From the IMG/VR virus record IMGVR_UViG_2630968911_000005: 27,633 bases of DNA; one strand, written 5' to 3'. This document shows, one piece after another, positions 1 through 24,327 of this stretch; position 1 is the first letter of the stretch, and every line of letters begins with the position of its first letter. The translations under genes and the position numbers were made by a program. The notes beneath the pieces were generated by a model, which made no database searches, had not been told where the DNA came from, and was given only the letters and a program-made list of their open reading frames with translations. This DNA comes from a virus (Duplodnaviria; Heunggongvirae; Uroviricota; Caudoviricetes).

Positions 1-1
1 A

Positions 2-1297
2 TTAATTTTTCATTGCTTCGTTATGGGGCATGGTTGGGGCAAACTCGCTTAACTGTGTATTTAACAAAGCTACCTGTGCATTATTGTTTTCAGACATCCA
101 TTTTCCGTATACCTGAAATACCATTTGCGCATCTGCATGGCCCATCTGGTTTGCTATAAATGCCGGGTTAGCACCAGCTGTCAGCGACCAGCAGGCATAA
201 GTATGTCTCGACTGATATGATTTTCGATGGCGGAGTCCGGCACGTTTTATCGCTGCGTCCCACATCTGCCTTATTGAGTCAACGGTAAAATGGTCACCAT
301 AATTTTTTACTCTCGCTGACACTTCAGGTTGAAAAACAAAGGTGCATTTATGTTTTTCTGTTCTGCCATACTCTCTGAGGTGAACATCAATGATATGCTC
401 TTTGCTCAGTCTCGTTAATGTCATCTGACTCCGGAGAGCGTCGATTGCTGGCTTAATAAGATGAATGACCCGATTGGTTCCCGCCTGTGTTTTTGGTACC
501 GTGAAACGGTCTTTTGCTAAATTTCTCCTGATCATCATTGTTCCATTTTTCAGATCTATGTCCTCCCATCCAAGTGCACACAGCTCACCAGGGCGAACGC
601 CAGTATAAACAGAAACACACCATAAATTTTTGGCTTGCTGATTTCTGCACGCATCGATAAGACGGATGAATTCCTCCCGCGAAAGAGGATCCGGAATGGT
701 TCTTGATTCCTTTAATGGCGAGATCCCCTTAAACGGGTTATCTGCCAGGTAACCGTTATCAACACCAAACTGGAACACGGCGTTAAGATTTGTCATGTAA
801 TTATTTACAGTTACAGCCGATCTCCCTGGTTGTGTAACAATATAGTTACTTTTGGGGATCTGGTATCCAGTCAGTAGCTCTTTACGAACCTCCAGTAATT
901 TTTCTTTATTAATCGATGAGGCAAGATTTTTTTCACCGATTATGCTCAGGATATTTTTGATGACGGCACGGTATGTGTTGAGTGATGTTTTTGCGACTTC
1001 AGTTTCTTTCAGTGCCAGAAATTTTTCAGCCAGTTCTTTTATGGTTAAATCTTGTCGAGTCTCACCAAATTTTTCCAGATTGCGTGAGGAGGGAAACTGT
1101 TTTGCATAGTCGAAAACACCAGTTTTTATTGCGTAACAAACAGAGGCGCGTAGCTCACCTGCAACGCGCCTGTTTTTTGCTGTGTCAGGAACCCCCAGGT
1201 TTTCCCTGACTCTTACGCCTTTATAAACAAACCAGATACGTAATTTCCCTCCATGGTTTTCCACGCCTGTCGGATATTTCATTTCAACTTCTCTCAT
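2..1297 (-). CDS. Phage tyrosine integrase (site-specific recombinase), apparently intact; alternative start at 1282 (MKYPTG...)
   Basis: 431-aa ORF with stop at 2-4. C-terminal region has tyrosine-recombinase-like motifs (SRHTYA ... MGHA ... VYGKW). Lies next to an Xis-like gene at the prophage end. Confidence 0.9.
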   Translation of the reverse strand: MREVEMKYPTGVENHGGKLRIWFVYKGVRVRENLGVPDTAKNRRVAGELRASVCYAIKTGVFDYAKQFPSSRNLEKFGETRQDLTIKELAEKFLALKETEVAKTSLNTYRAVIKNILSIIGEKNLASSINKEKLLEVRKELLTGYQIPKSNYIVTQPGRSAVTVNNYMTNLNAVFQFGVDNGYLADNPFKGISPLKESRTIPDPLSREEFIRLIDACRNQQAKNLWCVSVYTGVRPGELCALGWEDIDLKNGTMMIRRNLAKDRFTVPKTQAGTNRVIHLIKPAIDALRSQMTLTRLSKEHIIDVHLREYGRTEKHKCTFVFQPEVSARVKNYGDHFTVDSIRQMWDAAIKRAGLRHRKSYQSRHTYACWSLTAGANPAFIANQMGHADAQMVFQVYGKWMSENNNAQVALLNTQLSEFAPTMPHNEAMKN

Positions 1298-1316
1298 TAG
1301 TTAGTGTGGCTTTTAG

Positions 1317-1568
1317 TCAAGTAAGATGACGTCTTGGTCTTGCTGATGCCTGGCGCTCAATCCAGCGATCAATTTCTTCCAGGTTGTAAAAGCATGGACT
1401 GTTATCCCATGGCATACCGTCATGAGCGACATGCTTATATTCCCTTCCTTCCATAAACGATTTTTCCCGGGCCTTTTTTAACGTACCTTTTTTTATTCCT
1501 TTCAGCGCAATTAACTGCTCTTCGGATACCCATTTGCCGGGAGAGACAATCATGATTACTTCGCTCAT
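1317..1568 (-). CDS. Excisionase-like DNA-binding protein (Xis)
   Basis: 83-aa ORF directly upstream of int on the same strand. Contains GREYKHV, resembling the GREYLFH segment of lambda Xis as recalled. Confidence 0.65.
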   Translation of the reverse strand: MSEVIMIVSPGKWVSEEQLIALKGIKKGTLKKAREKSFMEGREYKHVAHDGMPWDNSPCFYNLEEIDRWIERQASARPRRHLT

Positions 1569-1640
1569 CGATTTCTTTATCTCTTACATCAGACGAGCGC
1601 CGGTTGCAGAATACCAGTCACAACCGGCGACAGTTGAACA

Positions 1641-2183
1641 TTAAGAATCAGCCTGACTCGGGATCAGTTTTTGCCAGATAACTGAAACGTATTTTGCCAG
1701 GTAACGGGCGTCATCAAGTGCATTATGGCGCTCACCTTCGAATGGAATAGCCGTTCTGGCATCGAAGTCTATGGCTTTCCCCAGCTCAACGATTGTGCGT
1801 ACATCGCGATCGTTGTAGTAACGCCACGGGCAGGGGATCCCCTGCCGTTCGTATGAACGGCGCAAAATCGTGTTGTCGAAGTTGGCTCCATTTCCCCAAA
1901 CCTGAACAAAAAATTCACCGGAGTTTTCGTCGATAAATTCTCGCAATTGTAACAGTGCATCATCTAACGGGATTTCATCGGTCATAATGGCAGATTGCGC
2001 TTCGCGTGATTGCTTAAGCCACCATTTAATGGTGTCCCGATCAATGACTCCGCCAGCAGTTTCCAGATCGATAGTCTTACTAAATTCCGGTCCCATATCT
2101 CCGGTTTGCGGATCGAAAAATATTGCACCTATTGAGATGATCGGGGCATCAGGATTTTTTCCCATGGTTTCAAGGTCGATCAT
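1641..2183 (-). CDS. DnaQ-like DEDDh 3'-5' exonuclease; start uncertain (longest ORF runs to 2333, overlapping the upstream gene)
   Basis: Exo I motif MIDLETMG and Exo III motif HNALDDARY are present. The internal ATG at 2181-2183 avoids overlap with the upstream gene, whose stop is at 2231. Confidence 0.8.
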   Translation of the reverse strand: MIDLETMGKNPDAPIISIGAIFFDPQTGDMGPEFSKTIDLETAGGVIDRDTIKWWLKQSREAQSAIMTDEIPLDDALLQLREFIDENSGEFFVQVWGNGANFDNTILRRSYERQGIPCPWRYYNDRDVRTIVELGKAIDFDARTAIPFEGERHNALDDARYLAKYVSVIWQKLIPSQADS

Positions 2184-2230
2184 TAGATGGTCACACGTCC
2201 TGCTGGTGGATGTGATTTCGTGATGACCGT

Positions 2231-4111
2231 TCACCTTAATTGGGTGATCTGCCGTCTCGCCAGTTTCATTATCGCTATTGTGATGCTGATTGCCGCCAGT
2301 GTTCTCCTTGTGTGGATGTTCAGCGCCTTCCATTTCCTCCGGATCATCTCCTGAACTTCAACCTGATACTCTTCATCGAATGTTTCTTGGTATGTTGCGT
2401 CGCCCATCACCGCGCCACAATCAGGGCAGTTGCCGCCGCCGGTCTGACCGCAGGCGGTGCAGGCTTTTTCCACTTCCTGTTGCGCCACTGGTTCAGGCTG
2501 TTTCGTTTCTGGCTCGTTTTGTAACGCATTTGGACTGTTTTGTTCCGCTTTTTGGTAGTTCCGTTCCGATTCATGCTGGTTCTGGTTCACAGAATCGCGG
2601 GTCTGGAGCCCCTTAACCCATTTCGGATCATTCGGGTCACTAATCCCTTCAACAAATTCACCACGTGATGCAGCAAGCAACTTATCGGCGTCAGGCTGGC
2701 TGATATTGGCTGCCTGCATAATTTTGTTTACTTCGTCAGCGGTAACTTTTATCGGCTCTGGTTGTTCTGAATCTTCAGCGGTATCTACATTTTGCGGTAA
2801 GCCCGTGTATGTGCCATTTTTTCGGGCAAAATATTCTTCTTTTGTGATTTCAGTGGCGCCAGCAGCCAGTGCCTTATCCAGACCAGAGAGTTTGTTTGCG
2901 CGACCGTATTTTTCTCCGTCCTTATCTGCGAAGAGGAAATAGAACGGCCCCTCACGCTCTACAGATGGTTCAGCTTCCGGCGCGGTTTCATTTTTTGGGA
3001 TATCAGATACCTCAGTTTCCACTGCATCAGTTTGTGTTTCTGATGACTGGAGAACATCAACAGTGCCCAGGTCTGTTTCTTCATTCTCAAACACGCCCTT
3101 TGTCGTCAGGTATTCGCAGATATATTTGTTCAGTGCTACGGGATCTTTGTGAATGTCGATCGGACGCTCACGGACAAGGCCAAAAATAGTTTGGCGGTCG
3201 TAGCGAAGGGCATCAGGCTGTTTGCGCATTGATGCCGAGATACGCTTCCAGTCTTCGCGGTCGTTGTCGATAACTTCTTTTTTTGCCCAGCGATGGATGC
3301 TGCCGTCAATGTTTCCGGCATCCACATCACTAGGCCAGAGAGCGTAGGCCAGTTCGTCATCCAGTGTTTTCCATGTCTGCTTGTATTCGCGATGAATGGC
3401 AGCAATGACCGGGCTGATTTTTCCTGTTGAATTTTCAGTGTACTGTTGATTGGCTCTGGCGCGGGCGAGATCAACAACAGACGTGTATTTTCCGGTTTCC
3501 TTGCGTTCACCTTCGCGACGTTTTTTCCAGATGCGCATCTCTGCCTGAATTTCGGGCCATTTAGCACCAGGAATACATTTATGCTTAACCCACCCAATGG
3601 CGTGCAACTTAAGCTCCGGATACATGGCGTTAACTTCTGGCATTTTCATCAACGCTTCAACGATATGTCCGTCGAATGTTGCCATGTCTTCCTGCAACAA
3701 TTCCTGTGCGCTAATAACCATATCAACGGTGATGTTTTCACATGTGTCGAACTTAACCATGACAGCGTTCTGTACTTCAGGGGCCAGCTTGTCAAAAGTG
3801 ACGTTCATCGGATCGGATTCAGTCTCAACCGGGACAAAAGAAGCAGACTCCTCATCCCAGCGGTTTTCCTGCATATATTCAGCATCCCATGAATCGAGGG
3901 CAGGGCGGGGTATGCCAGGTTTATCCTCGCAGACAATAAATTTATAAGCGCAGTCCTGAGCAGCCGGATAATGTTCCAGGAATTGCCAGTGAAATTTTGC
4001 TCGAGCACGGCGTTCGTCGCCAGCTTCAATGGCTGTGGCTACAGCCACAGCGCCTTCTTCCCTTGTTGCCAGTTCGTCAGGAATAGCGGCGCAAATAAAG
4101 ACTTTACTCAT
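2231..4111 (-). CDS. Large early-operon protein, RecE (exonuclease VIII) N-terminal-region-like, ending in a Cys4 zinc ribbon; no recognisable nuclease domain
   Basis: Long ORF; ATG at 4109-4111 (MSKVF...) is preceded by GAGG 9 nt upstream. Internal segment KLLAASRGEFVEGISDPNDPKWVKGLQTRD resembles RecE as recalled. C-terminus has CTACGQTGGGNCPDCG. The acidic central region is low complexity. Confidence 0.6.
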   Translation of the reverse strand: MSKVFICAAIPDELATREEGAVAVATAIEAGDERRARAKFHWQFLEHYPAAQDCAYKFIVCEDKPGIPRPALDSWDAEYMQENRWDEESASFVPVETESDPMNVTFDKLAPEVQNAVMVKFDTCENITVDMVISAQELLQEDMATFDGHIVEALMKMPEVNAMYPELKLHAIGWVKHKCIPGAKWPEIQAEMRIWKKRREGERKETGKYTSVVDLARARANQQYTENSTGKISPVIAAIHREYKQTWKTLDDELAYALWPSDVDAGNIDGSIHRWAKKEVIDNDREDWKRISASMRKQPDALRYDRQTIFGLVRERPIDIHKDPVALNKYICEYLTTKGVFENEETDLGTVDVLQSSETQTDAVETEVSDIPKNETAPEAEPSVEREGPFYFLFADKDGEKYGRANKLSGLDKALAAGATEITKEEYFARKNGTYTGLPQNVDTAEDSEQPEPIKVTADEVNKIMQAANISQPDADKLLAASRGEFVEGISDPNDPKWVKGLQTRDSVNQNQHESERNYQKAEQNSPNALQNEPETKQPEPVAQQEVEKACTACGQTGGGNCPDCGAVMGDATYQETFDEEYQVEVQEMIRRKWKALNIHTRRTLAAISITIAIMKLARRQITQLR

Positions 4112-4203
4112 TTGTTTTAACCTCATGACAGATTTAAGGATGAACAAATCCCTGCCATTGCTGGCATATAAGAATGAAACCGGATATTTATTACGGAACT
4201 GTT

Positions 4204-4395
4204 TTAAAGACCTGCCGGGATTTCGATATTATCCTGGTGAATAACTTTATCGACCGGGTAACAGTTACCGGGAATTTTCTGTTCGGTTGCTGCAGTCATA
4301 CACTCCTGCATTGTCCTGTGAACACTGACTGCAATATCAACTGGCTCTCCGGAAACAAGAAAAACTGTCAGAACAAGCACAAATGCTGAATTCAT
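4204..4395 (-). CDS. Small hypothetical protein with N-terminal signal-peptide-like hydrophobic segment
   Basis: 63-aa ORF (MNSAFVLVLTVFLVSG...). Its ATG overlaps the stop of the upstream gene (ATGA, 4392-4395), suggesting translational coupling. Confidence 0.5.
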   Translation of the reverse strand: MNSAFVLVLTVFLVSGEPVDIAVSVHRTMQECMTAATEQKIPGNCYPVDKVIHQDNIEIPAGL

Positions 4396-4580
4396 TGTGC
4401 ACATCCTTTTGGCATCAGACGTAAACGAGCCAGCATTGAAACAATGCATATTTTATTTAATAGCTCCCGTTCTTGTTTTCTCTTGTTAATGGCATCTTCA
4501 GTAAATACTGGGTTACTGATAGTGACACCAATTTCAAAACAACCTTCAGACGTATTAACGTTTGGTAATAACGTTTTCAT
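4392..4580 (-). CDS. Small hypothetical early-region protein (62 aa)
   Basis: ATG at 4578-4580 with GAGGA about 9 nt upstream. Sits where lambdoid phages carry kil/cIII-like small genes. Function not recognisable. Confidence 0.5.
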   Translation of the reverse strand: MKTLLPNVNTSEGCFEIGVTISNPVFTEDAINKRKQERELLNKICIVSMLARLRLMPKGCAQ

Positions 4581-4663
4581 TATCGCGTCCTCAACAATGA
4601 ATTTTGTGATGCAGTGCCTGGTGCCTCCAGGTGACGTTAACCAGTTAACAATTAACGCCGGAT

Positions 4664-4993
4664 ATGTGCTGTGGCAGCCGCATGTTCTGGTTCGATAAGT
4701 CTGACGAACGGGCGATATTCAGCGATATCAGAAAAGAAGGATACACATTACGCAATGGGAGACGCTTGATTATCAGCCCTGACATTATCGCAGATTTTCG
4801 TGCATTATCATTTGCAGACGCATCTTTTTCGATGGTTGTATTAGACCCTCCGCATCTTGAGAGTGTTGGTGATAACGCCTGGATGGGAAAGAAATATGGA
4901 CGGCTGAATAAAGATGCCTGGCGTGATGATTCGCGACAGAGATTTAAAGAAGCCTTTCGGGTGTTGAGGCCGCACGGCGTTCTGATTTTTTAA
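4664..4993 (+). pseudogene. Truncated DNA N6-adenine/N4-cytosine methyltransferase fragment (DPPH motif)
   Basis: ORF contains SFSMVVLDPPH followed by RVLRPHGVLIF, the pattern of amino-methyltransferase motif IV and a downstream block. It stops right after, with no continuation in any frame. Confidence 0.5.
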
Positions 4994-5415
4994 TGGAATG
5001 AAACGCAAATACCGGTAAGCCAGATTCTGGCACTGACAGACAGAAAACCTGTTATCTGTCAACGAACAGGGAAAAAACGATAAAACCCACTGGATTATTT
5101 TTATGAAAGAGGCATCCAGTGAGTAGATTCGTAAGGCTACAGATACGTATATCTGAATAATTAAATTCAGTTCTGTAAATAAAATTTAATCCTTAACCGG
5201 ATGGATTTCTGCACCCTCAGAACATCAGGAGGCCGCCCGAAAGGGCGGTAGTGAAATGCGAAAGTTCAAAATTATTATTGAAACGGGAATAGCTGGTGGA
5301 GATTTTGAGGATGTATTCGAAGTGGACGATGACGCAACACCTGAGGAAATTCATGACGGAGCATAAGAAATTTTCTTTAACTACTGCAATTACTCATACC
5401 ACGAAATAAAAGACG

Positions 5416-5607
5416 ATGAGGAAGAACAAAGTGGCTGATTTTTGTTCAGCTAAATATAACATCAGTTTTGAAGAGCGGGATGAACTATTAATGGACTATG
5501 GTGAGTTACGCGGTGGAAGTGCTGCTGATGTCGAATCCTAGCGTGATGACTATGAAGCGGGAAAAACTCCGGTCGAAGCATATTGTGATGAGTGGGGCGA
5601 TGAATGA
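5416..5607 (+). pseudogene. Small ORF with in-frame amber codon (TAG 5539-5541); read-through frame stays open to TGA 5605-5607
   Basis: Manual translation: MRKNKVADFCSAKYNISFEERDELLMDYGELRGGSAADVES-TAG-RDDYEAGKTPVEAYCDEWGDE. The extended frame ends in an ATGA overlap with the next ORF. Confidence 0.3.
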
Positions 5608-5891
5608 GCGAGATTAATTATCAGGAAGGGCATGAAACGGCGGGGCAAGCAAAACCAGTGGCATGGCGATATCGCTACGTGAAAAAAGGCGTTACGGACT
5701 TTCAGGGGAAGTAGTGGTCTGGTGACTGGAAATATGTACCGAAAAAAGAGGATTGTAACGACAGGCCGAACTATCAAATTCAGGCCTTATTCACTGCCTC
5801 ACCAGTCCCAGTTACATCAGAAGAACTGGTTAAAGCTGTGCACTTTTATGAACAACTAAAACGCGAAAATCCACCAACATCCGGCAACTAG
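5604..5891 (+). pseudogene. Small ORF with in-frame amber codon (TAG 5712-5714); 95-codon frame if read through
   Basis: Manual translation: MSEINYQEGHETAGQAKPVAWRYRYVKKGVTDFQGK-TAG-WSGDWKYVPKKEDCNDRPNYQIQALFTASPVPVTSEELVKAVHFYEQLKRENPPTSGN. The downstream segment reads like protein and has no stops for 58 codons. Confidence 0.3.
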
Positions 5892-6145
5892 ATTAATGGA
5901 TTAACTATGTCGGTTAAACGACCAGCCAACTGAAAAAGCGGAAACCTGATTACAGGTTGCCAGATAAGGCAATGAGCTACCTGGCGCGGAACGGACTGAT
6001 AAGTATGGGGAATGTTTTACGATGAACCTTTAGACTAAAGAGTTTGTAACGCTATGTAAGTGATTTTTTCTGGTTTAGATATTTATATGTCCGGCCAAAT
6101 TGAGGTGTGTTTAAATGTAATTGCACATTGATTGTAGGAGGAATA

Positions 6146-6325
6146 ATGAAAAACGCATTGCAGTTTTTGTTTGTTGCGTTCTGGTTGTTCGCATCATGTA
6201 TGCCCATCATCTTCACAGCAAGGTATATGGAAAAAGTTGATGTTTTGATATTAATATTTGGATATATAAATGCCCTTTTTTTAGGGGTGTTCATGGCGGT
6301 CATGTGCATTGAATACTGGCGGTAA
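6146..6325 (+). CDS. Small hydrophobic protein (59 aa, two predicted transmembrane segments)
   Basis: ATG at 6146 preceded by AGGAGG 6 nt upstream. Product MKNALQFLFVAFWLFASCMPIIFTARYMEKVDVLILIFGYINALFLGVFMAVMCIEYWR. Confidence 0.45.
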   Translation: MKNALQFLFVAFWLFASCMPIIFTARYMEKVDVLILIFGYINALFLGVFMAVMCIEYWR

Positions 6326-6659
6326 ATACAGCGAACTCCATTGGTTTAGTTGGATATTTACTGTGCTGGACAAAAACGGTTTGCGGGGAAATCTTAGTTA
6401 AGTAGAATGACTGCGGGTGCTTGAGGCTATCTGCCTCGGGCATGGACACCAACGGCAGATAGAGAAAAGCCCCAGTTAACATTACGCGTCCTGCAAGACG
6501 CTTAACATTAATCTGAGGCCAATTTCATGCTAGACACATGTAGGTTAGCCTCTTACGTGCCGAAAGGCACGGAGAAGCAGGCTATTGTTAACACCAAGCT
6601 GTAATGTCCCCTTTGAACCATTCTAAAATGTCCCCAGACAATTCTCTGGGGGATTTTTC

Positions 6660-7973
6660 ATGATCAAAGAGACTGTTACGATGAGTCATAAGGAACTCCA
6701 CCGACTTCAGATTATTCAGGAACAAGCTGCGGCACGCATTGGCATTTCTATTCGGCAGGTTAAACGTCTGGTGCAACGGTATAGAAATGAAGGGCCTTCT
6801 GGTCTGGTTTCCCACCGACGTGGAAAGCGTCCTAATAATTCCTTTTCTACTGAATTCAGAGCAACAGTAATTTCACTCCTCAAAGGCCGTTACGCTGATT
6901 TTGGACCTACGTTTGCGTGCGAAAAATTGCGCGAGATACACGGTTTATCTTTATCCGTTGAAACTCTCAGAAAGTGGATGATAGAAGAGGGGTTATGGCG
7001 TGAACGCCGTCGTAAAATTGCCCGTATATATCAACGCCGCATGCGACGACCATCTTACGGTGAACTGATCCAGATTGATGGCTCACCTCATGACTGGTTT
7101 GAAAATCGAGGCCCCAGATGTACACTGATCGTTTTCATTGATGATGCCACCAGTGCGTTGATGGCGTTGCGTTTTGTGCCTGCTGAAACAACCCGGGCTT
7201 ACATGGAAACCCTCCGGGGTTACCTTAATGATCATGGCGTACCGCTCGCTCTCTACTCTGATAGACACAGTATATTCAGGGTAAATAACCCAGAGCGGGA
7301 AGGTGAGCTGACCCAGTTCACTCGTGCGATAAAGACACTGGGCATCGAGCCAATCCATGCCAACAGCCCGCAGGCAAAAGGGCGGGTAGAGCGCGCCAAT
7401 CAGACACTACAGGACAGGCTGGTCAAAGAAATGCGGCTTCAGAATATCAGTGATATTGAAACAGCAAATGCATGGTTGCCGACCTTTATTGAAGCCTATA
7501 ACAACCGGTTCGCTACGTCGCCTCGTACTACTGATAATGCTCATCTTGATGTGCACCATTCTGAAGAGGAACTGGGTTATATCTTCAGCCTACAGGCGAA
7601 GCGCGTTCTGTCTAAAAATCTCACTTTCCAGTACAAAAGCAGTGCGTTTCAGGTACGCAGTGAGGGCCGGGGATATCGACTTAGGCATTCGGTTGTTACT
7701 GTATGCGAGAACTTTGACGGTGAAATTAACGTTCTGTATGACGGGAAAGCGCTGGGCTGGGAAAAGTATGTTGATGGCCCGGAGCCTATACCACTGGATG
7801 ATGAAAAGAGTGTCCATGAACGAGTGGATAATGCCCGTATTGATTTACGCTCAAAATACTATGTTAAACCTAAAGCTGACCATCCCTGGCTTACGCGCCG
7901 AACGCAAAGTCATCAGCAAGTTAAGCCCCCGAAGTTACCTAAAAAGAAGCCTGATCCCGATAAAAAAGATTGA
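6660..7973 (+). CDS. DDE transposase/integrase, rve superfamily with N-terminal HTH; IS481-family or ISNCY(IS1202-group)-like
   Basis: 437-aa ORF. N-terminal pattern RQVKRLVQRYRNEGPSGLVSHRRGKRP; catalytic D (IQIDGS), D (LYSDRHSIF) and E (GRVERANQTLQ). RBS GGGGGA upstream of ATG. Confidence 0.8.
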   Translation: MIKETVTMSHKELHRLQIIQEQAAARIGISIRQVKRLVQRYRNEGPSGLVSHRRGKRPNNSFSTEFRATVISLLKGRYADFGPTFACEKLREIHGLSLSVETLRKWMIEEGLWRERRRKIARIYQRRMRRPSYGELIQIDGSPHDWFENRGPRCTLIVFIDDATSALMALRFVPAETTRAYMETLRGYLNDHGVPLALYSDRHSIFRVNNPEREGELTQFTRAIKTLGIEPIHANSPQAKGRVERANQTLQDRLVKEMRLQNISDIETANAWLPTFIEAYNNRFATSPRTTDNAHLDVHHSEEELGYIFSLQAKRVLSKNLTFQYKSSAFQVRSEGRGYRLRHSVVTVCENFDGEINVLYDGKALGWEKYVDGPEPIPLDDEKSVHERVDNARIDLRSKYYVKPKADHPWLTRRTQSHQQVKPPKLPKKKPDPDKKD

Positions 7974-8005
7974 AACCAAGATCGATTCGGTTGAGTGCAT
8001 TGATC

Positions 8006-8896
8006 CTACCCACGTAATATGGACACAGGCCTAAGCGAGGTTCTGGTTTTCAATTGTTCCGGACTGAGGCCGCCACACCAACTGTGCCGCCGCCACCGAT
8101 TGTAATCACATTCGATATAATTAAATACCGTTGCCCGCATTATTTCCCGGCTGATAAAGTGTTTTCCATGGATACATTCCACTTTCAGCGAATGAAAGAA
8201 GCTTTCCACGCAGGCATTATCGTAGCAGCAACCTTTTGCGCTCATACTTCCACGCAGATTATGCCGCTTCAGTTGCGCCTGATAATCTGCTGAACAGTAC
8301 TGGCCTCCACGGTCCGTGTGAACGATAACGTTCCGGGGCCTCTTACGCCGCCACAGCGCCATCTGCAGGGCATCGCAGGCCAGTTGCGCCGTCATGCGTG
8401 GCGACATTGACCAGCCAATAACGGCACGTGACCACAGGTCAATGACCACTGCCAGATACAGCCAGCCTTCATCTGTACGTAAGTACGTGATGTCTCCTGC
8501 CCACTTCTGGTTCGGGCCACTGGCGTAAAAATCCTGCTCCAACAGATTTTCTGACACAGGCAGGCCGTGTGCGCGGTAGCTGACCGGGCTGAACTTCCGG
8601 GAGGCCTTTGCCCTCAGTCCCTGACGGCGCAGGCTTGCCGCCACGGTTTTTACGTTAAAGGGGTAACCCTGAGCACGCAGTTCATCCGTCAGGCGTGGGG
8701 CACCGTAACGCTGTTTTGACCGGGTAAAAGCCGCGAGGACAACGCTGTCGCAGTGTTGGCGGAACTGCTGACGCGTGCTTATCCTTGTCCGCCGCTGACA
8801 CCACGTATACCAGCCGCTGCGGGCCACCCGGAGCACGCGGCACATTGCTTTGATGCTGAACTCAGCCTGATGTTTTTCAATAAAGACATACTTCAT
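8006..8896 (-). CDS. insF: IS3 transposase OrfB (InsF), DDE integrase core
   Basis: Protein matches IS3 InsF as recalled ([21 protein letters not shown] ... DRGGQYCS ...) except at the extreme C-terminus. Confidence 0.9.
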
Positions 8897-9192
8897 TTCA
8901 GGCGCTTCGCGAAGTATGTCGCGGCCTTTTGGAGGATAGCCAGCTCTTCATCCCGTTCTGCCAGCTGGCGTTTGAGACGTGCAATCTCGGTAGACATCTC
9001 CAGTTCACGTTCAGAAGACGTCTGCTGATTTTGCTGTTTACTGCGCCAGTTGTAGAGCAGTGATTCATACAGGCTGAGTTCACGGGCTGCGGCAGTAACA
9101 CCGATGCGTTCAGCAAGCTTCAGGGCTTCACTGCGAAATTCAGGCGAATGCTGTTTACGGGGTTTTTTACTGGTTGATACTGTTTTTGTCAT
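8893..9192 (-). CDS. insE: IS3 transposase OrfA (InsE), HTH protein
   Basis: [32 protein letters not shown]... matches IS3 OrfA as recalled. The ORF track begins 3 codons upstream (9201). Confidence 0.9.
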
Positions 9193-9669
9193 GTGAGTCA
9201 CCTCTGACTGAGAGTTTACTCACTTAGCCGCGTGTCCACTATTGCTGGGTAAGATCACATATCCATTCATAGGGTAGATTCTTAAGTCGCGTTTCTGGTG
9301 TTCATTTTCGGGTGGTTTGTTACTTGTTTTACCGGGGATATGCCAGAAACGCGCTGAGTCAGTCTGGGCGGTGCGCGTAATGAGGCGTTATGGTAAATAG
9401 CCTATGCTAATGTCCGCTAAGAGCAAGAAGCGGAAGTTGGCAGTTTTGTGGACTGTCCCCACAAAAGTGACTACAGAAATAGTTGCAATTCATAATTGAT
9501 CATGGGTTGTCAGTTAAACTCGTGGCGATTTAAATAGACTAATTGGGAGTGCGTCCATTACTTATATCTTGTAATGTTAACTATCAGAAATGATACAAAG
9601 ATAATATGTCTTTAAAGAAAAGGCTGATGGCGAAAAGTGGCCCGATGAGGGCCACAATACGGCTGTCAC

Positions 9670-10002
9670 TTAGACGTAAATATCAATGGTGCCAGCGGTA
9701 TTTGTATCGTCTTTTTTCTCTTCTTTTTTATCAGGCTGAACTGTCGCGTCTTCATTCTTTTTCTCTGCCTGCTGCCTTAACAACTGCTCCAGTTGAGCCC
9801 AGAGGCTTTCAATTTGCTTCTGTACCAATGCAGCCATTTCTTTTTTCTGCTGTGTCGTCATCCCCTCTTCCGATGAGATTTTCCCAAGCTTTTCAGTCAG
9901 CACCTGAATTTGTCTTGTGATTTTGGCTATTTCTGATGTTCCTTCCGGGGCGGAGTTGTTTGAAATAACGGTTGAGGTATTTCCCTGAATTGTGACAGAC
10001 AT
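9670..10002 (-). CDS. flxA: FlxA-like protein (FliA-regulated prophage gene)
   Basis: 110-aa product matches E. coli K-12 FlxA as recalled. RBS AAGGAG upstream. Confidence 0.9.
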   Translation of the reverse strand: MSVTIQGNTSTVISNNSAPEGTSEIAKITRQIQVLTEKLGKISSEEGMTTQQKKEMAALVQKQIESLWAQLEQLLRQQAEKKNEDATVQPDKKEEKKDDTNTAGTIDIYV

Positions 10003-10025
10003 AGATTTCTCCTTTTAAAAAAGCA

Positions 10026-10052
10026 CTATCGGCATGCACAAAAAAATCTTTA
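10026..10052 (-). promoter_or_regulatory. Sigma-28 (FliA) class 3 flagellar-type promoter for flxA
   Basis: Minus strand reads TAAA-N15-GCCGATAG (consensus TAAA-N15-GCCGATAA), ending about 24 nt upstream of the flxA ATG. Confidence 0.6.
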
Positions 10053-10204
10053 ATCGTATTTCTTGTGTCATTAATTGTTTGATGTTCAGATTGTTTTCCT
10101 CGCGGGCTGGCGCGCCTCAGAAAGTAAAGCTTGTTGACAGGGGTAAACGTTCGGCAATAATTTTCTGCCGCATGCGGGTGTTGCATAAAACGTGTTACGT
10201 TCCT

Positions 10205-10510
10205 TTATCGACAGGTCAGGTCACCGCTCACCCGCCGACGAGAAAGCAACACTGACATGCTAAAGCAAAAAATAGATGAATAAGTTGAGTTGTGCATATG
10301 TAGCCTGACCGTCACAAAGTATATGGTGTCTGTACCAGTAAGATGATGGCCGGACTCTTTAAAAACGAGCTGACCTGCACAATACAGGATGGACTTAGCA
10401 ATGGCTGCTCCTGGCACAAAGCGGACAGTGATCACCGTTCTTACGACTACTTTCTGACTTCCTTCGTGACTTGCCCTAAGCATGTTGTAGTGCGATACTT
10501 GTAATGACAT
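10205..10510 (-). CDS. ydfV: Hypothetical protein (YdfV-like position and length, 101 aa); doubtful gene
   Basis: ORF divergent from relB, same position and length as K-12 ydfV. No clear RBS or motifs. Confidence 0.3.
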   Translation of the reverse strand: MSLQVSHYNMLRASHEGSQKVVVRTVITVRFVPGAAIAKSILYCAGQLVFKESGHHLTGTDTIYFVTVRLHMHNSTYSSIFCFSMSVLLSRRRVSGDLTCR

Positions 10511-10523
10511 TTGTAATTACAAG
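10471..10523 (+). promoter_or_regulatory. relBE promoter (TTGCCC-N17-GATACT) with overlapping operator repeats (relO)
   Basis: CTTGTAATGACATTTGTAATTACAAG at 10498-10523 has repeated TTGTAAT hexads with dyad symmetry, just upstream of relB. Confidence 0.6.
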
Positions 10524-10534
10524 AGGTGTAAGAC

Positions 10535-10774
10535 ATGGGTAGCATTAACCTGCGTATTGACGATGAACTTAAAGCGCGTTCTTACGCCGCGCTTGAAAAA
10601 ATGGGTGTAACTCCTTCTGAAGCGCTTCGTCTCATGCTCGAGTATATCGCTGACAATGAACGCTTGCCGTTCAAACAGACACTCCTGAGTGATGAAGATG
10701 CTGAACTTGTGGAGATAGTGAAAGAACGGCTTCGTAATCCTAAGCCAGTACGTGTGACGCTGGATGAACTCTGA
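10535..10774 (+). CDS. relB: RelB antitoxin
   Basis: 79-aa product matches K-12 RelB as recalled (MGSINLRIDDELKARSYA...). Stop overlaps relE start (TGATG). Confidence 0.95.
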   Translation: MGSINLRIDDELKARSYAALEKMGVTPSEALRLMLEYIADNERLPFKQTLLSDEDAELVEIVKERLRNPKPVRVTLDEL

Positions 10775-11061
10775 TGGCGTATTTTCTGGATTTTGACGAG
10801 CGGGCACTAAAGGAATGGCGAAAGCTGGGCTCGACGGTACGTGAACAGTTGAAAAAGAAGCTGGTTGAAGTACTTGAGTCACCCCGGATTGAAGCAAACA
10901 AGCTCCGTGGTATGCCTGATTGTTACAAGATTAAGCTCCGGTCTTCAGGCTATCGCCTTGTATACCAGGTTATAGACGAGAAAGTTGTCGTTTTCGTGAT
11001 TTCTGTTGGGAAAAGAGAACGCTCGGAAGTATATAGCGAGGCGGTCAAACGCATTCTCTGA
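10774..11061 (+). CDS. relE: RelE mRNA interferase toxin
   Basis: 95-aa product matches K-12 RelE as recalled (MAYFLDFDERALKEW...). Confidence 0.95.
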   Translation: MAYFLDFDERALKEWRKLGSTVREQLKKKLVEVLESPRIEANKLRGMPDCYKIKLRSSGYRLVYQVIDEKVVVFVISVGKRERSEVYSEAVKRIL

Positions 11062-11132
11062 ACCAAAGCATGACATCTCTGTTTCGCACCGAAGGTGACA
11101 CTTCTGCTTTGCGTTGACAGGAGAAGCAGGCT

Positions 11133-11288
11133 ATGAAGCAGCAAAAGGCGATGTTAATCGCCCTGATCGTCATCTGTTTAACCGTCATAGTGACGGCACT
11201 GGTAACGAGGAAAGACCTCTGCGAGGTACGAATCCGAACCGGCCAGACGGAGGTCGCTGTCTTCACAGCTTACGAACCTGAGGAGTAA
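11133..11288 (+). CDS. hokD: Hok-family small membrane toxin HokD (RelF), 51 aa
   Basis: Manual translation MKQQKAMLIALIVICLTVIVTALVTRKDLCEVRIRTGQTEVAVFTAYEPEE. Below the ORF-track size cutoff. RBS GGAGAAG upstream. Confidence 0.85.
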   Translation: MKQQKAMLIALIVICLTVIVTALVTRKDLCEVRIRTGQTEVAVFTAYEPEE

Positions 11289-11504: not shown

Positions 11505-11756
11505 ATGATGAACATCGAAGAACTGCGTAAAATTTTTTGTGAAGATGGCCTCTATGCTGTGTGCGTTGAAAATGGAAATCTTGTTAGTCATTACCGCATT
11601 ATGTGTTTGCGAAAGAATGGGGCTGCGTTAATTAATTTTGTGGATGCTCGGGTCACGGACGGATTTATCTTGCGCGAAGGTGAGTTTGTCACTTCATTAC
11701 AGGCATTGAAAGAGATCGGAATAAAAGCTGGCTTTTCTGCTTTTTCAGGAGAATAA
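11505..11756 (+). CDS. rem: Rem protein (function unknown)
   Basis: 83-aa product matches K-12 Rem as recalled (MMNIEELRKIFCEDGLYAVC...). Confidence 0.85.
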   Translation: MMNIEELRKIFCEDGLYAVCVENGNLVSHYRIMCLRKNGAALINFVDARVTDGFILREGEFVTSLQALKEIGIKAGFSAFSGE

Positions 11757-13978: not shown

Positions 13979-14023
13979 TTTTTCAACGATGGGCTTTGTA
14001 TACCCGACGTTAAGAAAAAGTAG

Positions 14024-14054
14024 AAAACCCGCTGATGAGCGGGTTTTGTGCTTT
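14024..14054 (+). terminator. Rho-independent terminator (tR'-like) ending a short leader transcript
   Basis: AAAACCCGCT-GATG-AGCGGGTTTTGTGCTTT: 6-bp GC stem followed by a T-run. Confidence 0.6.
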
Positions 14055-14339
14055 AAATGGGGCAATGGTAATGTTGAATCTCATCCCGGGACTCATGTCT
14101 GTTAACTTATTATTTAGCTGGTGACTTGGTTATTTGCCTGATGTTTAAAATGTTTTCTTCCAGTACAATGTCCCTAAACACAATGAGTCTGCTTATTATA
14201 TTATTAGCAGAGCTATTACGGCCAAAGTACAGCATAAGCTTTTAAAGCCAATCAACCAGTCATCAAGACAGACGGGGTTATTCATAAAAACTCTCCATGT
14301 GTGATCCGATGGGGCCTGAAATTAAAGCTTTAATATAGC

Positions 14340-14552
14340 TCATGAAAGGTAAACATTGGCAGCTGAAGGGCCACGCAGACCATTTATCCGGCAAAATTCC
14401 ACGCGTAATCCGGTGGTAATTTCTTCTGCATCGCGGAGATTGAGCGCTGAAACATGAAGCTGGACATCGATACGACCATCGGATGGGGTGATAAGACCCT
14501 TGCCGCTTTTGCCGTCAAAGGTTTTGACAATTCCTGTCATTTTACGGGACAA
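14340..14552 (-). CDS. cspF: Cold-shock protein family member CspF
   Basis: 70-aa cold-shock-domain protein ([26 protein letters not shown]...). Confidence 0.9.
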
Positions 14553-14852
14553 AAAAATTCCTTAATACTGATAACTTGGCGCACTATACACACGTTCCTG
14601 AAGAAAGCTATAGTTTTTTGATGGGGTTGAAGATGGCTGGATGTCTAAAATAAACATTGCTTCATATGTTCAACTATGCGTTAATGATTGCGTCGGTTTG
14701 AAGAACAGACGATATACGAAGTAGTTTACTAAAGCAGTTCTCATTTCAGGTGTTATTCACTTATTCCTTCTTTGAGTCTCTCCAATTAAGTACGAAGTCG
14801 TTTCTGTTATGCAAACCATTTATGCCGAAAGGCTCAAGTTAAGGAATGTAGA

Positions 14853-15068
14853 ATGTCAAATAAAATGACTGGTTTAGTAAAATGGTTTAACGCTGATAAA
14901 GGTTTCGGCTTTATTTCTCCTGTTGATGGTAGTAAAGATGTGTTTGTGCATTTTTCTGCGATTCAGAATGATAATTATCGAACCTTATTTGAAGGTCAAA
15001 AGGTTACCTTCTCTATAGAGAGTGGTGCTAAAGGTCCTGCAGCAGCAAATGTCATCATTACTGATTAA
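14853..15068 (+). CDS. cspB: Cold-shock protein CspB
   Basis: 71-aa product with RNP motifs (KGFGFI, VFVHF). Long AT-rich 5' leader upstream. Confidence 0.92.
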
Positions 15069-15347
15069 AATTCATCGCTCGTCTGTATACGATAACGAAG
15101 AAGGCTGATGCCTGAGTAGAGATACGGACAGAGTAGTGAATATTGGATCTCTTTAATAAAAAGTAAGGAGGTCCAATACATGAAACAATGGCTAGCATAT
15201 TTGGCAAAATCTTAATCAGGAAAAGTATGCTAACCATTGTGGTGAAGTGCAGGTTTGCTGCATGAATAGTTTTACAGCAGAAGCTAACTGCTGGCATGGC
15301 AAAACAAAGTGCGTAAGTGGATGACTCCCACAAAAAGCACCACAATC

Positions 15348-15375
15348 TCAAACCCGCTCAGGCGGGTTTTTTATT
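15348..15375. terminator. Bidirectional rho-independent terminator between cspB and ynfU
   Basis: AAACCCGC-TCAG-GCGGGTTTTTTATT: GC stem flanked by an A-tract and a T-tract. Confidence 0.6.
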
Positions 15376-15431
15376 ATCTGCTTTAAATATATTATTAAAA
15401 TATAAAAAATACTTGTTACTAATAAAATCAA

Positions 15432-15602
15432 TCAGGCTACAGCTTTAAGATTTGTCTGGAATACTTTGTTGCAATGAGGGCAGATCAAAAGGGCACCTTT
15501 TTGTACTCTTGAAAAACTGTGTTCTGACTCTTGGGTGCAGTTTGGGCAGGAACATTTAACGAGATAATTACGGCGTGATTTTGAGTTTTTACGTTCTGAC
15601 AT
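15432..15602 (-). CDS. ynfU: Small zinc-ribbon protein YnfU-like (56 aa)
   Basis: MSERKNSKSRRNYLVKCSCPNCTQESEHSFSRVQKGALLICPHCNKVF... has two CxxC-type pairs. The ORF track begins 17 codons upstream. Confidence 0.65.
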   Translation of the reverse strand: MSERKNSKSRRNYLVKCSCPNCTQESEHSFSRVQKGALLICPHCNKVFQTNLKAVA

Positions 15603-15821
15603 AGGCTTTTCCTGTATAAATGGCCGTATACAGTACACTAAATATGAAAACATTTCTCGTATTATTATTTTATATATGACTTTCTTTCAAAATAATTACC
15701 CACATTTTTAATGTGTATGTTTTTTTAGCGCCGTTGAGAACAACGTGTGCTGTCAAAACTACCCCGTAGACTCCGATCTTTTCAAACATATTGCACCATC
15801 CGTGTACATCGGGGTGAGGAT

Positions 15822-16037
15822 ATGAAATCAATGGATAAGTTAACAACAGGTGTTGCCTATGGCACATCGGCGGGTAATGCTGGTTTCTGGGCATTGCAGT
15901 TACTCGATAAAGTAACTCCGTCACAGTGGGCTGCAATCGGTGTGCTGGGTAGCCTGGTTTTTGGCCTGCTGACGTATCTGACAAATCTTTATTTCAAGAT
16001 TAAAGAAGACAGGCGTAAGGCTGCGAGAGGAGAGTAA
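15822..16037 (+). CDS. essQ: Phage-21-type pinholin (S21-like), dual-start motif MKSMDK
   Basis: 71 aa, [26 protein letters not shown]...[15 protein letters not shown]; resembles S21 pinholin as recalled. RBS GGGGTGAGGA upstream. Confidence 0.88.
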
Positions 16038-16041
16038 TCCA

Positions 16042-16349
16042 ATGACTCAAGACTATGAACTGGTTGTGAAAGGAGTCCGTAATTTTGAGAATAAAGTTAC
16101 GGTAACTGTAGCCTTACAGGACAAAGAACGCTTTGACGGTGAAATTTTTGACCTGGATGTCGCCATGGACCGTGTTGAAGGAGCTGCGCTGGAGTTTTAT
16201 GAGGCAGCAGCCAGAAGGAGCGTCCGGCAAGTCTTCCTGGAAGTAGCAGAAAAATTGTCAGAAAAAGTTGAGTCTTATCTGCAGCATCAGTACTCCTTTA
16301 AGATTGAAAATCCTGCCAATAAGCACGAGCGTCCTCATCATAAATATCT

Positions 16350-16353
<4 letters not shown>
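16042..16353 (+). CDS. ydfR: YdfR-like protein of unknown function between holin and endolysin
   Basis: 103-aa ORF; its stop overlaps the endolysin start (ATGA). Confidence 0.8.
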
Positions 16354-17377
<1,024 letters not shown>

Positions 17378-17739
17378 GGTAATATTAAATCGGAACATTT
17401 ACATCGCGGAATGTAAAATTTAAATAAAAAGGACTCTTCCATGAGCCAAAATTCCTGAAATCTTAAGGGTAAGATAAAAGGTCTTAATCAGAATGACACG
17501 TTTTATTAATAAATAAAGCTATTCTTTCATTGCTGTGTTTTTCTTTACAAAAGTAATCCTTGCTATGGGTGGTTAATCATGCGTTAATGGTGTTCTGGTT
17601 TGTTACAAATTTATCTGAAGCAGTCATTGTTATAATTTTATTATTTGTACCTCTTGAGATTTCCTTGTTGGTTTTTCTCTCTGATATTTTTTTTCGGACC
17701 ATTCTGCCCAAGGGCTAATTTCTTCAAAAGGTAATAATT

Positions 17740-17952
17740 ATGTCTAACAAAATGACTGGTTTAGTGAAATGGTTTAACCCTGAAAAAGGTTTTGGTTTCA
17801 TCACGCCGAAAGATGGCAGCAAAGATGTGTTTGTCCATTTCTCAGCAATTCAGAGCAACGATTTCAAAACATTAACTGAGAATCAGGAAGTTGAATTTGG
17901 TATTGAGAACGGACCTAAAGGTCCTGCCGCTGTTCATGTAGTGGCGCTTTGA
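17740..17952 (+). CDS. cspI: Cold-shock protein CspI
   Basis: 70-aa cold-shock-domain protein ([34 protein letters not shown]...). RBS AAGGTAA. About 350-nt AT-rich leader. Confidence 0.92.
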
Positions 17953-18156
17953 GGTAGACAATATTACAAACCATATTCACTTTAGATGCCCGTGTTGTCA
18001 TGGTTCCCAGTATAGAACATCATCTTTTGATGTTTCTGACATGAATCCTTTCGGGGCAAAATGTATCTTTTGTAAATCAATGATGATTACATTTGATAAT
18101 ATTTCACAATACTTAAATGCCAGCCGTCTGTCGTTGGATTTAAAAAAGTGAAAATG

Positions 18157-20040: not shown

Positions 20041-20562
20041 ATGGAAGTCAACAAAAAGCAGCTGGCTGACATTTTCGGTGCGAGTATCCGTACCATTCAG
20101 AACTGGCAGGAACAGGGAATGCCCGTTCTGCGAGGCGGTGGCAAGGGTAATGAGGTGCTTTATGACTCTGCCGCCGTTATAAGATGGTATGCCGAAAGGG
20201 ATGCTGAAATTGAGAACGAAAAGCTGCGCCGGGAAGTTGAAGAACTGCGGCGGGCCAGCGAGACAGATCTCCAGCCAGGGACTATTGAGTACGAACGCCA
20301 TCGACTTACGCGTGCGCAGGCCGACGCACAGGAGCTGAAAAATGCCAGAGACTCCGCTGAAGTGGTGGAAACCGCATTCTGTACTTTCGTGCTGTCGCGG
20401 ATCGCAGGTGAAATTGCCAGTATTCTCGACGGGATCCCCCTGTCGGTGCAGCGGCGTTTTCCGGAACTGGAAAACCGACATGTTGATTTCCTGAAACGGG
20501 ATATCATCAAAGCCATGAACAAAGCAGCCGCGCTGGATGAACTGATACAGCATGGACGTTGA
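20041..20562 (+). CDS. nohQ: Terminase small subunit Nu1 homolog; C-terminal about 11 residues replaced at a deletion junction
   Basis: [42 protein letters not shown]... matches lambda Nu1 through ...AAALDELI, then ends QHGR. Confidence 0.9.
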
Positions 20563-23500: not shown

Positions 23501-23752
23501 GGTGCTCCGGGAAGTGGATCACCTGATTATTCTAAATACAGTGTTAACACTTCTTCTGCAGGCGCTCATACGCACTCTGTATCGGGTACTGCTGCAAGCG
23601 CAGGTGCACACGCACATACTGTCGGTATTGGTGCTCATACGCACTCCGTTGCGATTGGCTCACATGGACACACCATCACCGTTAACGCTGCTGGTAACGC
23701 GGAAAACACCGTCAAAAACATCGCATTTAACTATATTGTGAGGCTTGCATAA
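20552..23752 (+). CDS. stfQ: Side tail fibre protein (lambda Stf family), N-terminally truncated by deletion
   Basis: Begins at lambda Stf internal [12 protein letters not shown]. Long Ala/Ser/Thr repeats (AAKTSETNA...). C-terminal GAHTHS repeats and ...[14 protein letters not shown]. Confidence 0.9.
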
Positions 23753-24327
23753 TGGCATTCAGAATGAGTGAACAACCACGGACCATAACAATTTATAATC
23801 TGCTGGCCGGAACTAATGAATTTATTGGTGAAGGTGATGCATATATTCCGCCTCATACAGGTCTGCCAGCAAACAGTACCGATATTGCACCGCCAGATAT
23901 TCCGGCTGGCTTCGTGGCTGTTTTCAACAGTGATGAGTCATCGTGGCATCTCGTTGAAGATCATCGGGGTAAAACGGTTTATGACGTGGCTTCCGGCGAC
24001 GCGTTATTTATTTCTGAACTCGGTCCGTTACCGAAAAATGTTACCTGGTTATCGCCGGAAGGGGAGTTTCAGAAGTGGAACGGCACAGCCTGGGTGAAGG
24101 ATACGGAAGCAGAAAAACTGTTCCGGATCCGGGAGGCGGAAGAAACAAAAAACAACCTGATGCAGGTAGCCAGTGAGCATATTGCGCCGCTTCAGGATGC
24201 TGCAGATCTGGAAATTGCAACGGAGGAAGAAATCTCGTTGCTGGAAGCATGGAAAAAGTATCGGGTATTGCTGAACCGTGTTGATACGTCAACTGCACAG
24301 GATATTGAATGGCCAGCACTGCCGTAG
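23752..24327 (+). CDS. tfaQ: Tail fibre assembly protein (Tfa)
   Basis: 191-aa ORF overlapping the stf stop (TAATG). N-terminus [26 protein letters not shown]. Confidence 0.85.

Follow-up and report, generated by a model that had tools for sequence, protein, structure and literature searches.

What became of the immunity and replication genes of a Qin-type prophage whose corresponding interval is occupied by two mobile elements? The question is raised by the window analysed here, a stretch of viral DNA of 27,633 nucleotides (IMG/VR record IMGVR_UViG_2630968911_000005), which is a decayed, 27.6-kb remnant of a Qin-type lambdoid prophage at the rspB/ydfJ site. The elements are a copy of the insertion sequence (IS) IS3 and a second element with its own transposase gene, and an initial annotation, made from the sequence alone, had placed both of them where the missing genes should be. 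We found that the genes are missing because of a 3,835-bp deletion located at a distance from both elements. Three separate events, a deletion, the insertion of a transposon and the insertion of IS3, and not an IS-driven replacement, shaped the interval; this is the explanation that we favour, and we hold it with high confidence. The second element turned out to be an ISEsa1-type transposon of the IS1202 family (6586-11119, plus strand) which carries flxA, ydfV, relB and relE and splits the hokD locus.

The window has no immunity or replication genes

The window was assigned to the Qin-type cryptic prophages by its integration between rspB and ydfJ and by its synteny to Qin of Escherichia coli K-12. 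E. coli G4/9 matches it over the full length, with 7 positions differing. For comparison we used two related prophages, SC406 (NZ_LR778140), which is integrated at the same site, and MLI114. Both retain a repressor, Cro, YdaT, a replication initiator (O-like in SC406) and DUF977; SC406 is without IS3 and MLI114 is without the transposon.

We found no repressor, Cro, N-like or replication gene in the interval 4150-9670 or in the rest of the window, nor does RefSeq annotate any immunity or replication gene in the near-identical record. When eight proteins of SC406 and five of MLI114 (DicA, DicC, YdaT, the O-like initiator, DUF977 and YdfA/B/C) were used as tblastn queries against the window, the best match reached only E = 0.079. 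In a Pfam search of the 141 otherwise unannotated open reading frames (ORFs) with a minimum length of 45 aa, 12 families were matched; HTH_3, Cro, cI and replication families were not among them, and ten further annotated genes matched their expected families only. DicF was not found in the window by Rfam. An HTH_3/cI-type repressor divergent from a Cro-type gene, the hallmark of a lambdoid immunity module, is therefore missing from the window, whereas both genes are present in SC406. The same holds for the replication module, as neither an O-like initiator nor a helicase loader was found in the window and the 321-aa initiator of SC406 has no homologue there.

On this point the initial annotation was right. 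The absence of repressor/cro, N-like and O/P-like genes is borne out by annotation, tblastn, Pfam, PHROGs and NCBIfam, and the search of 4150-9670 with hidden Markov models that it had suggested gave no cI/Cro or replication family. It had also described int and xis as apparently intact, and as ORFs both are: the integrase gene (2-1297, minus strand) is an intact ORF of 431 aa with Arm-DNA-bind_2 and Phage_integrase domains, intact in the G4/9 annotation as well, and the excisionase gene xis (1317-1568, minus strand) is an intact ORF that matches DUF1233, a putative excisionase family, with E = 1.6e-31. Since the module is absent and the int and xis ORFs remain, it is reasonable to regard the prophage, as had been proposed, as a remnant without repressor control that is unable to replicate on its own. 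Such a remnant is unable to set up immunity, to replicate or to be induced.

A 3,835-bp deletion with GATA at the junction

When the window was compared with SC406 by blastn, two colinear blocks with 99.4% and 98.7% identity were obtained, separated by a gap of 3,835 bp. Window positions 1-4664 correspond to 5500-10165 of the SC406 locus, and 4661-8000 correspond to 14001-17367. The alignment places the deletion junction at 4661-4664, where the two blocks share the 4-bp microhomology GATA, and in SC406 the missing 3,835 bp are flanked by two GATA copies. The junction is positioned about 80 bp upstream of dicB, in unique sequence and 1.9 kb from the nearest IS end.

The SC406 segment that corresponds to the gap contains dicF, ydfC, ydfB, ydfA, dicA, dicC, ydaT and the genes for the O-like replication initiator and DUF977. 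Its DicA is a 135-aa HTH_3 repressor and its DicC belongs to the P22_Cro family (Pfam), DicF was found there by Rfam, and the PHROGs classes of the gap proteins include a repressor, a CII-like protein (YdaT) and a Ren-like protein (DUF977). The 321-aa protein matches phrog_391, "replication initiation O-like", with E = 5.6e-91. These genes correspond exactly to the immunity and replication module. We propose that illegitimate recombination at GATA deleted the 3,835 bp in one event; lost with them were the promoter and operators of the dicB operon together with dicA (cI-like), dicC (Cro-like) and ydaT (CII-like). The identical junction is present in only 4 of 5,426 complete E. coli genomes. In four further genomes (CFSAN061772, PSJ-16, MB19 and 20AR0354) different deletions join dicB directly to DUF977, so the immunity region has been lost more than once with dicB retained. 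This loss is ordinary decay of a cryptic prophage.

The initial annotation had seen the two IS elements as sitting in the place of the module, which would mean that they replaced or destroyed it, for instance by an IS-mediated adjacent deletion. IS elements often cause adjacent deletions, and the stretch from dicB to flxA, which in K-12 contains dicA and dicC, does hold both elements. The comparison with SC406 already contradicts this explanation and leaves it with very little probability. In SC406 the module coexists with the same transposase element, whose position is the one it has in the window; therefore the element did not replace the module. The GATA junction lies in unique sequence far from the IS ends, and both IS3, with its 3-bp duplication (CAT), and the transposon have intact target duplications, which means that neither of them lost flanking DNA. 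We consider it just as improbable that a divergent, unrecognised repressor or replication gene survives among the small or unannotated ORFs, such as the one at 6107-6325. Several ORFs in 4664-6585 have no family assignment and the ORF screen outside the interval covered only those of at least 45 aa, but Pfam, PHROGs, NCBIfam and tblastn detected no such gene. Moreover, the segment 5153-6585 is colinear with MLI114, whose own cI, cro, ydaT and replication genes sit elsewhere, and its ORFs are therefore downstream, nin-like genes. The poorest explanation of all would be an assembly or sequencing artefact. The window does have two single-base deletions relative to G4/9, at 2350 and 8054, which are either true mutations or sequencing errors, but the identical junction occurs in four independently finished genomes, and different deletions of the same module occur in other strains.

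The dicB operon was left without its promoter

The deletion spared ydfD and dicB (4204-4580, minus strand; DUF1482 and DicB Pfam matches), the latter encoding a cell-division inhibitor. In K-12, the major promoter of the dicB operon is dicBp, which is located upstream of ydfA and repressed by DicA, while the ydfA-dicF region yielded no other promoter (PMC10448788). Derepression of the operon is toxic in K-12 (PMC10448788). Since the dicBp region falls within the deletion, ydfD-dicB in the window has no native promoter. With dicBp gone, dicB, ydfD, the frameshifted exonuclease gene, xis and int have no known promoter and are probably silent. This would explain why the loss of DicA was tolerated, because the repressor and the promoter went together and the toxic dicB-ydfD pair probably fell silent. 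The annotated rem gene (11505-11756, plus strand) encodes the antirepressor of DicA, as described in K-12 (PMC10448788). It was retained although dicA and dicBp are gone, and it is now an orphan antirepressor without a target.

A relBE-carrying transposon splits the hokD locus

Beyond the decayed genes that follow the junction lies the transposase gene of the second element (6660-7973, plus strand), which encodes 437 aa and whose last 49 codons correspond to ydfW of K-12. It had been described as IS481-like, but the IS481 model NF033577 gave only 125.7 bits against a cut-off of 224 and this family was rejected. The ISNCY model NF033594 gave 456.4 bits against a cut-off of 250 and covered model positions 7-365 of 368, which assigns the transposase to the ISNCY/IS1202 family (ISEsa1 type). 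Compared with its relatives of 446 aa (1,338 nt), the window transposase has a 27-nt in-frame deletion (9 aa) near the N-terminal DNA-binding region. This deletion is not present in SC406, Shigella or any other relative compared.

Directly upstream of the element we found the 5' leader of the hokD mRNA with the sok/mok region (6415-6585, plus strand), cut from its coding sequence. The leader was recognised by Rfam model RF01794 with 104 bits against a gathering threshold of 59, and the match reaches 6586. In MLI114 the same leader runs uninterrupted into hokD, and the window is colinear with MLI114 up to the ATG. The hokD coding sequence of the window is located downstream of relBE (11133-11288, plus strand), where it aligns to the hokD coding sequence of MLI114. 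Instead of following its leader directly, as in an intact hok locus, it lies 4.5 kb away and the two parts are split by the transposon.

Both breakpoints carry the same 15-bp sequence, GGAGAAGCAGGCTAT, which occurs in the window only at 6571 and 11120 and is single copy at the empty MLI114 site. We take it as the target-site duplication of the transposon, with the left copy at 6571-6585 and the right copy at 11120-11134; the right copy retains the Shine-Dalgarno sequence of hokD and AT(G). The terminal inverted repeats lie immediately inside: the left one begins with TGTTAACACCAAGCTGTAATGTCCCC (6586-6615, plus strand) and is identical in at least 15 loci, and the right one ends with CTTCTGCTTTGCGTTGACA (11090-11119, minus strand) and adjoins the second copy of the duplication. 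In the whole window, 11090-11119 is the best reverse-complement match to the left 30 bases, with 22 identical positions. These features were located by a position-specific scan, as a generic repeat finder did not rank the repeats and the 15-bp duplication at the top among the many chance matches of similar length in 4.9 kb.

The unit defined by these ends is 4,534 bp long with IS3 and 3,274 bp long without it, and it reaches past the right limit of the interval 4150-9670. It contains a variable cargo segment (9670-10510) with flxA (9670-10002, minus strand; FlxA Pfam match) and ydfV (10205-10510, minus strand), followed by the type II toxin-antitoxin (TA) pair relB-relE (10535-11061, plus strand), which belongs to the conserved right arm. 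The identity of the pair is clear from adjacent matches to RelB (PF04221, E = 1e-32) and ParE_toxin (PF05016, E = 2.2e-13). A simple IS would have 1.3-2.3 kb and a transposase gene only, and the element is better described as a passenger-carrying IS or a unit transposon. Imperfect terminal repeats together with 13-16-bp duplications at independent sites are the ends expected of the ISNCY/IS1202 family. The initial annotation had used flxA/relBE as the right-hand landmark of the prophage; judged by the ends and by the duplications at independent sites, both are cargo of the transposon.

According to the sequence of events that we propose, the transposon entered the start codon of hokD before the deletion took place, duplicating 15 bp and separating hokD from its sok/mok leader. 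The gene kept its translation signals because the Shine-Dalgarno sequence and the first two bases (AT) of the start codon lie within the duplication. It now sits behind relBE, matching the relB-relE-hokD operon known from K-12.

IS3 (8001-9257, minus strand) lies inside the transposon, starting 27 nt past the stop codon of the transposase, and is absent from SC406. An IS3 has about 1,258 bp, terminal repeats of about 39 bp, orfA/orfB and a 3-bp target duplication, and the window copy fits this, with terminal repeats of 39 nt, ORFs with rve and HTH_21 domains and the duplication CAT at 7998-8000 and 9258-9260; it is more than 99% identical to many other IS3 copies. The 3' end of orfB is altered by the 1-nt deletion at 8054 relative to G4/9. 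Nothing was lost beside IS3, which would have arrived later inside the transposon as a simple insertion.

The same ends bracket elements with different cargo

The 15-bp repeat and the inverted match predicted a transposon at 6586-11119, and its relatives confirmed the prediction. For each species, the transposase relatives of a single genome were fetched. Elements of 2.6-7.3 kb with this pair of ends occur in Enterobacter, Citrobacter, Kluyvera, Pseudocitrobacter, Leclercia, Scandinavium and others, and each of these elements is flanked by its own direct repeat of 13-16 bp. A 3,301-bp copy on an Enterobacter cloacae IncF plasmid is 99.0% identical to the window element over its whole length, flxA, ydfV and relBE included, and is inserted into another hok gene, where a 16-bp duplication of its own flanks it. 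In Hahella there are plain relatives, about 1.44 kb long, with ends of the same type (...GGGTTGACA) and 15-16-bp duplications, and the ...TTGACA end is shared by the plain relatives in Hahella and Rhabdochlamydiaceae.

The comparison of these copies revealed two conserved arms. The left arm, about 1.61 kb, consists of the left repeat, the 446-aa transposase and about 170 bp. The right arm is 713 bp long (10407-11119 in the window) and consists of the first ~33 codons of "ydfV", the promoter region of relBE, relB, relE and the right repeat; it is 90-99% identical across copies with different cargo. The cargo is always swapped between the same boundaries, which correspond to window positions ~9428 and ~10407. 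In another version it comprises a cation-diffusion-facilitator transporter and a cytochrome b protein, and this version was found in 320 plasmid records at a coverage of at least 80%. It is 4.6 kb long (5927-10526 of locus L016), frequently found on large conjugative plasmids of Enterobacter, Klebsiella and Citrobacter and often interrupted further by an IS110-family element (ISEsa2). Other cargo sets exist, some with further IS insertions. Most copies have relBE as the TA module at the right end, and one has a GNAT/DUF1778 pair instead. The latter copy, from Scandinavium hiltneri (5927-10201 of locus L036), has a transposase that is ~81% identical and a 15-bp duplication; the GNAT-toxin/DUF1778-antitoxin pair replaces relBE at its right end, and an acetyltransferase-like gene is present in addition.

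The ydfV ORF spans the right cargo boundary. Copies with unrelated cargo share its first ~33 codons but not the remainder, and YdfV may be a chimeric ORF and not a true gene. At the left cargo boundary (9425-9450) there is an inverted repeat with an 8-bp stem, TTTTGTGG-N7-CCACAAAA, and two direct copies of a motif like the AATGTCCCC repeats of the left end. The inverted repeat could be a terminator or a site of cargo exchange.

Insertion sites are concentrated at hok start regions

Among the loci fetched there were 18 distinct insertion sites, and 10 of them are the Shine-Dalgarno/start-codon region of a hok-family gene, with one insertion in the opposite orientation. At another five loci, no more than 1-2 bases separate the end of the Rfam hok leader from the left repeat. 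The right flanks encode Hok-like peptides. A GGCA(A/T) motif is usually present just 5' of the duplication, also at three of the four non-hok sites with defined duplications. In one non-hok site (5837-5950 of locus L016) the left end lies inside an Rfam match to the isrO small RNA (58.8 bits).

The duplications form a matched pair of their own at every hok site, and the insertion point shifts slightly from site to site, which argues for fresh insertions rather than for spread by recombination alone. Homologous recombination between hok loci was considered as the sole cause of the hok association and, in view of the site-specific duplications, judged insufficient. The sites suggest a transposase-driven preference for hok start regions. 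A strong preference for one kind of site is shared with Tn7 (attTn7) and the ISAjo2 group (dif sites). In contrast to these, no target-selector protein is evident in the window-type transposon and its preference is not absolute.

ISEsa1 as the probable left arm of a larger transposon

A 2023 analysis of the IS1202 family (PMC10132070) gives ISEsa1 a length of 1,609 bp and a transposase of 439 aa and lists no detectable target duplication for it. The conserved left arm has a length of 1,606-1,616 bp, which fits the listed one, and the 446-aa ORF amounts to 439 aa, the listed size, when it is read from the second methionine. The listed ISEsa1 is therefore probably the left arm only, which is probably also the reason why no target duplication was found for it. 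The window element resembles the ISEsa1/IS1202 family in its NF033594 transposase and its imperfect terminal repeats, and the long duplications of 15-16 bp are similar to those of the long-duplication subgroup. It differs from the listed ISEsa1, which lacks a duplication, in that the unit extends past the cargo and relBE as far as a distal right repeat and is flanked by duplications. We consider it likely that ISEsa1 is the transposase arm of transposons of 2.6-7.3 kb, which have a TA module at the right end, swap their cargo at a fixed internal position, generate 13-16-bp duplications and prefer the start codons of hok genes on plasmids and prophages. It is likely to the same degree that relB, relE, flxA and ydfV of K-12 are passengers of such a transposon and that the relBEF operon arose when the transposon inserted into hokD.

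An alternative would be that a 1.6-kb ISEsa1 and a separate relBE insertion both lie between what is left of two recombined hok loci, so that the 15-bp repeat and the relBE-proximal end would not delimit one mobile unit. In ISfinder, ISEsa1 is given as a 1,609-bp IS (PMC10132070), and relBE has been described as a separate, horizontally acquired insertion that integrated into hokD (PMC6379469). The sequence just upstream of hokD is also faintly like a hok leader hairpin. We rejected these bases as a remnant leader, as the same end is found at non-hok sites and in plain relatives. Two insertions are improbable for other reasons too: no right repeat was found ~150 bp past the transposase stop codon, the expected end of a 1.6-kb IS, and the 1,609-bp unit has no target duplication in PMC10132070. 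Moreover, the duplications flank the whole unit at no fewer than eight independent sites, three of them non-hok, and the right-end motif ...TTGACA recurs in the plain relatives.

Several observations weigh against a single transposon and the history that we propose for the window. The terminal repeats agree at only 22 of 30 positions, the window transposase has the 9-aa in-frame deletion, and transposition is known from sequence traces only; with this deletion and with IS3 inside it, the window element may no longer be mobile. Part of the hok association could stem from recombination between hok loci. The order given for the three events comes solely from which relatives carry which feature. 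As for the presumed silence of the dicB operon, a scan for promoters on the minus strand ahead of dicB gave two weak matches (9/12), a number expected by chance, and read-through transcription could still reach dicB.

Other genes of the remnant and comparison with K-12 Qin

The remaining left part of the window is decayed as well. The exonuclease gene (1641-4147, minus strand) is frameshifted into the ORFs 1641-2333 and 2231-4147, with a Rv2179c-like exonuclease domain in the C-terminal fragment, and the split is caused by the 1-nt deletion at 2350 relative to G4/9. Right of the junction, a truncated ORF of a phage DNA methyltransferase (4664-4993, plus strand) matches positions 57-165 of 229 of phrog_954 and is a pseudogene in SC406. 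It is followed by a DUF7167 pseudogene with an internal stop (5256-5438, plus strand), which is an intact gene in MLI114, and by a frameshifted hypothetical gene (5604-6025, plus strand), which is annotated as frameshifted in MLI114 too. For part of this stretch MLI114 has intact versions of the decayed small genes, as well as an uninterrupted hokD.

From flxA to the right, the genes follow the order of K-12 Qin: ydfV, relBE, hokD, rem, ydfU and the Q-like ydfT, then the csp genes, the lysis genes, nohA fused to a tail-fibre gene, tfaQ and pinQ. The structural region has also suffered a deletion: nohA continues straight into a tail-fibre ORF of 1,066 aa (both within 20041-23752). The window lacks a gene for the large terminase subunit as well as head and tail genes, while in SC406 nohA is followed by terminase and portal genes. 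Rfam detected known Qin features, namely the IS009 small RNA (24095-24293, 220.9 bits) and cspA-type thermoregulator leaders upstream of cspB and cspI (14692-15084 and 17594-17979).

K-12 Qin occupies the same rspB/ydfJ site and has the same flxA-to-pinQ order and the same dicB-ydfD as the window. It keeps dicF, ydfCBA, dicA and dicC and has lost the integrity of int/xis, whereas in the window int, xis, the entire transposase and the hok leader persist and the immunity and replication block is lost. The deletion in K-12 is a different one. It runs from inside ydaT to inside the transposase, of which only the part equivalent to window positions 7789-8000 was retained. In the K-12 sequence (17175-17637 of locus L002), ydfX is the 5' part of ydaT fused into the interior of the transposase and ydfW is the transposase C-terminus. 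In the K-12 relBEF operon, relB, relE and hokD have the same order and spacing as in the window. The window keeps the left half of the hokD event (hok leader, duplication, left repeat and transposase), which K-12 has deleted and from which the vehicle can be recognised.

Significance

The loss of the immunity region is itself of little weight, as it adds one more decay route to a well-known cryptic prophage. DicA seems to be lost only jointly with the promoter of the toxic dicB operon, which makes a tidy example of constraint, and independent deletions in other strains have the same property.

The transposon explains why hokD of K-12 is without its sok/mok control region and is co-transcribed with relBE, and it is the vehicle that brought the archetypal relBE together with flxA into the E. 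coli chromosome. In the literature on ISEsa1/ISNCY elements with hok or relE, and on relBE/hokD with a transposon, we found no description of this vehicle, although our coverage was incomplete and a prior description is possible. The transposon probably also resolves the missing target duplication of ISEsa1. Its family is common on large conjugative plasmids of clinical Enterobacteriaceae and lands preferentially at hok start codons. This preference makes both the choice of target and any stabilising role of the TA pair testable in the laboratory.

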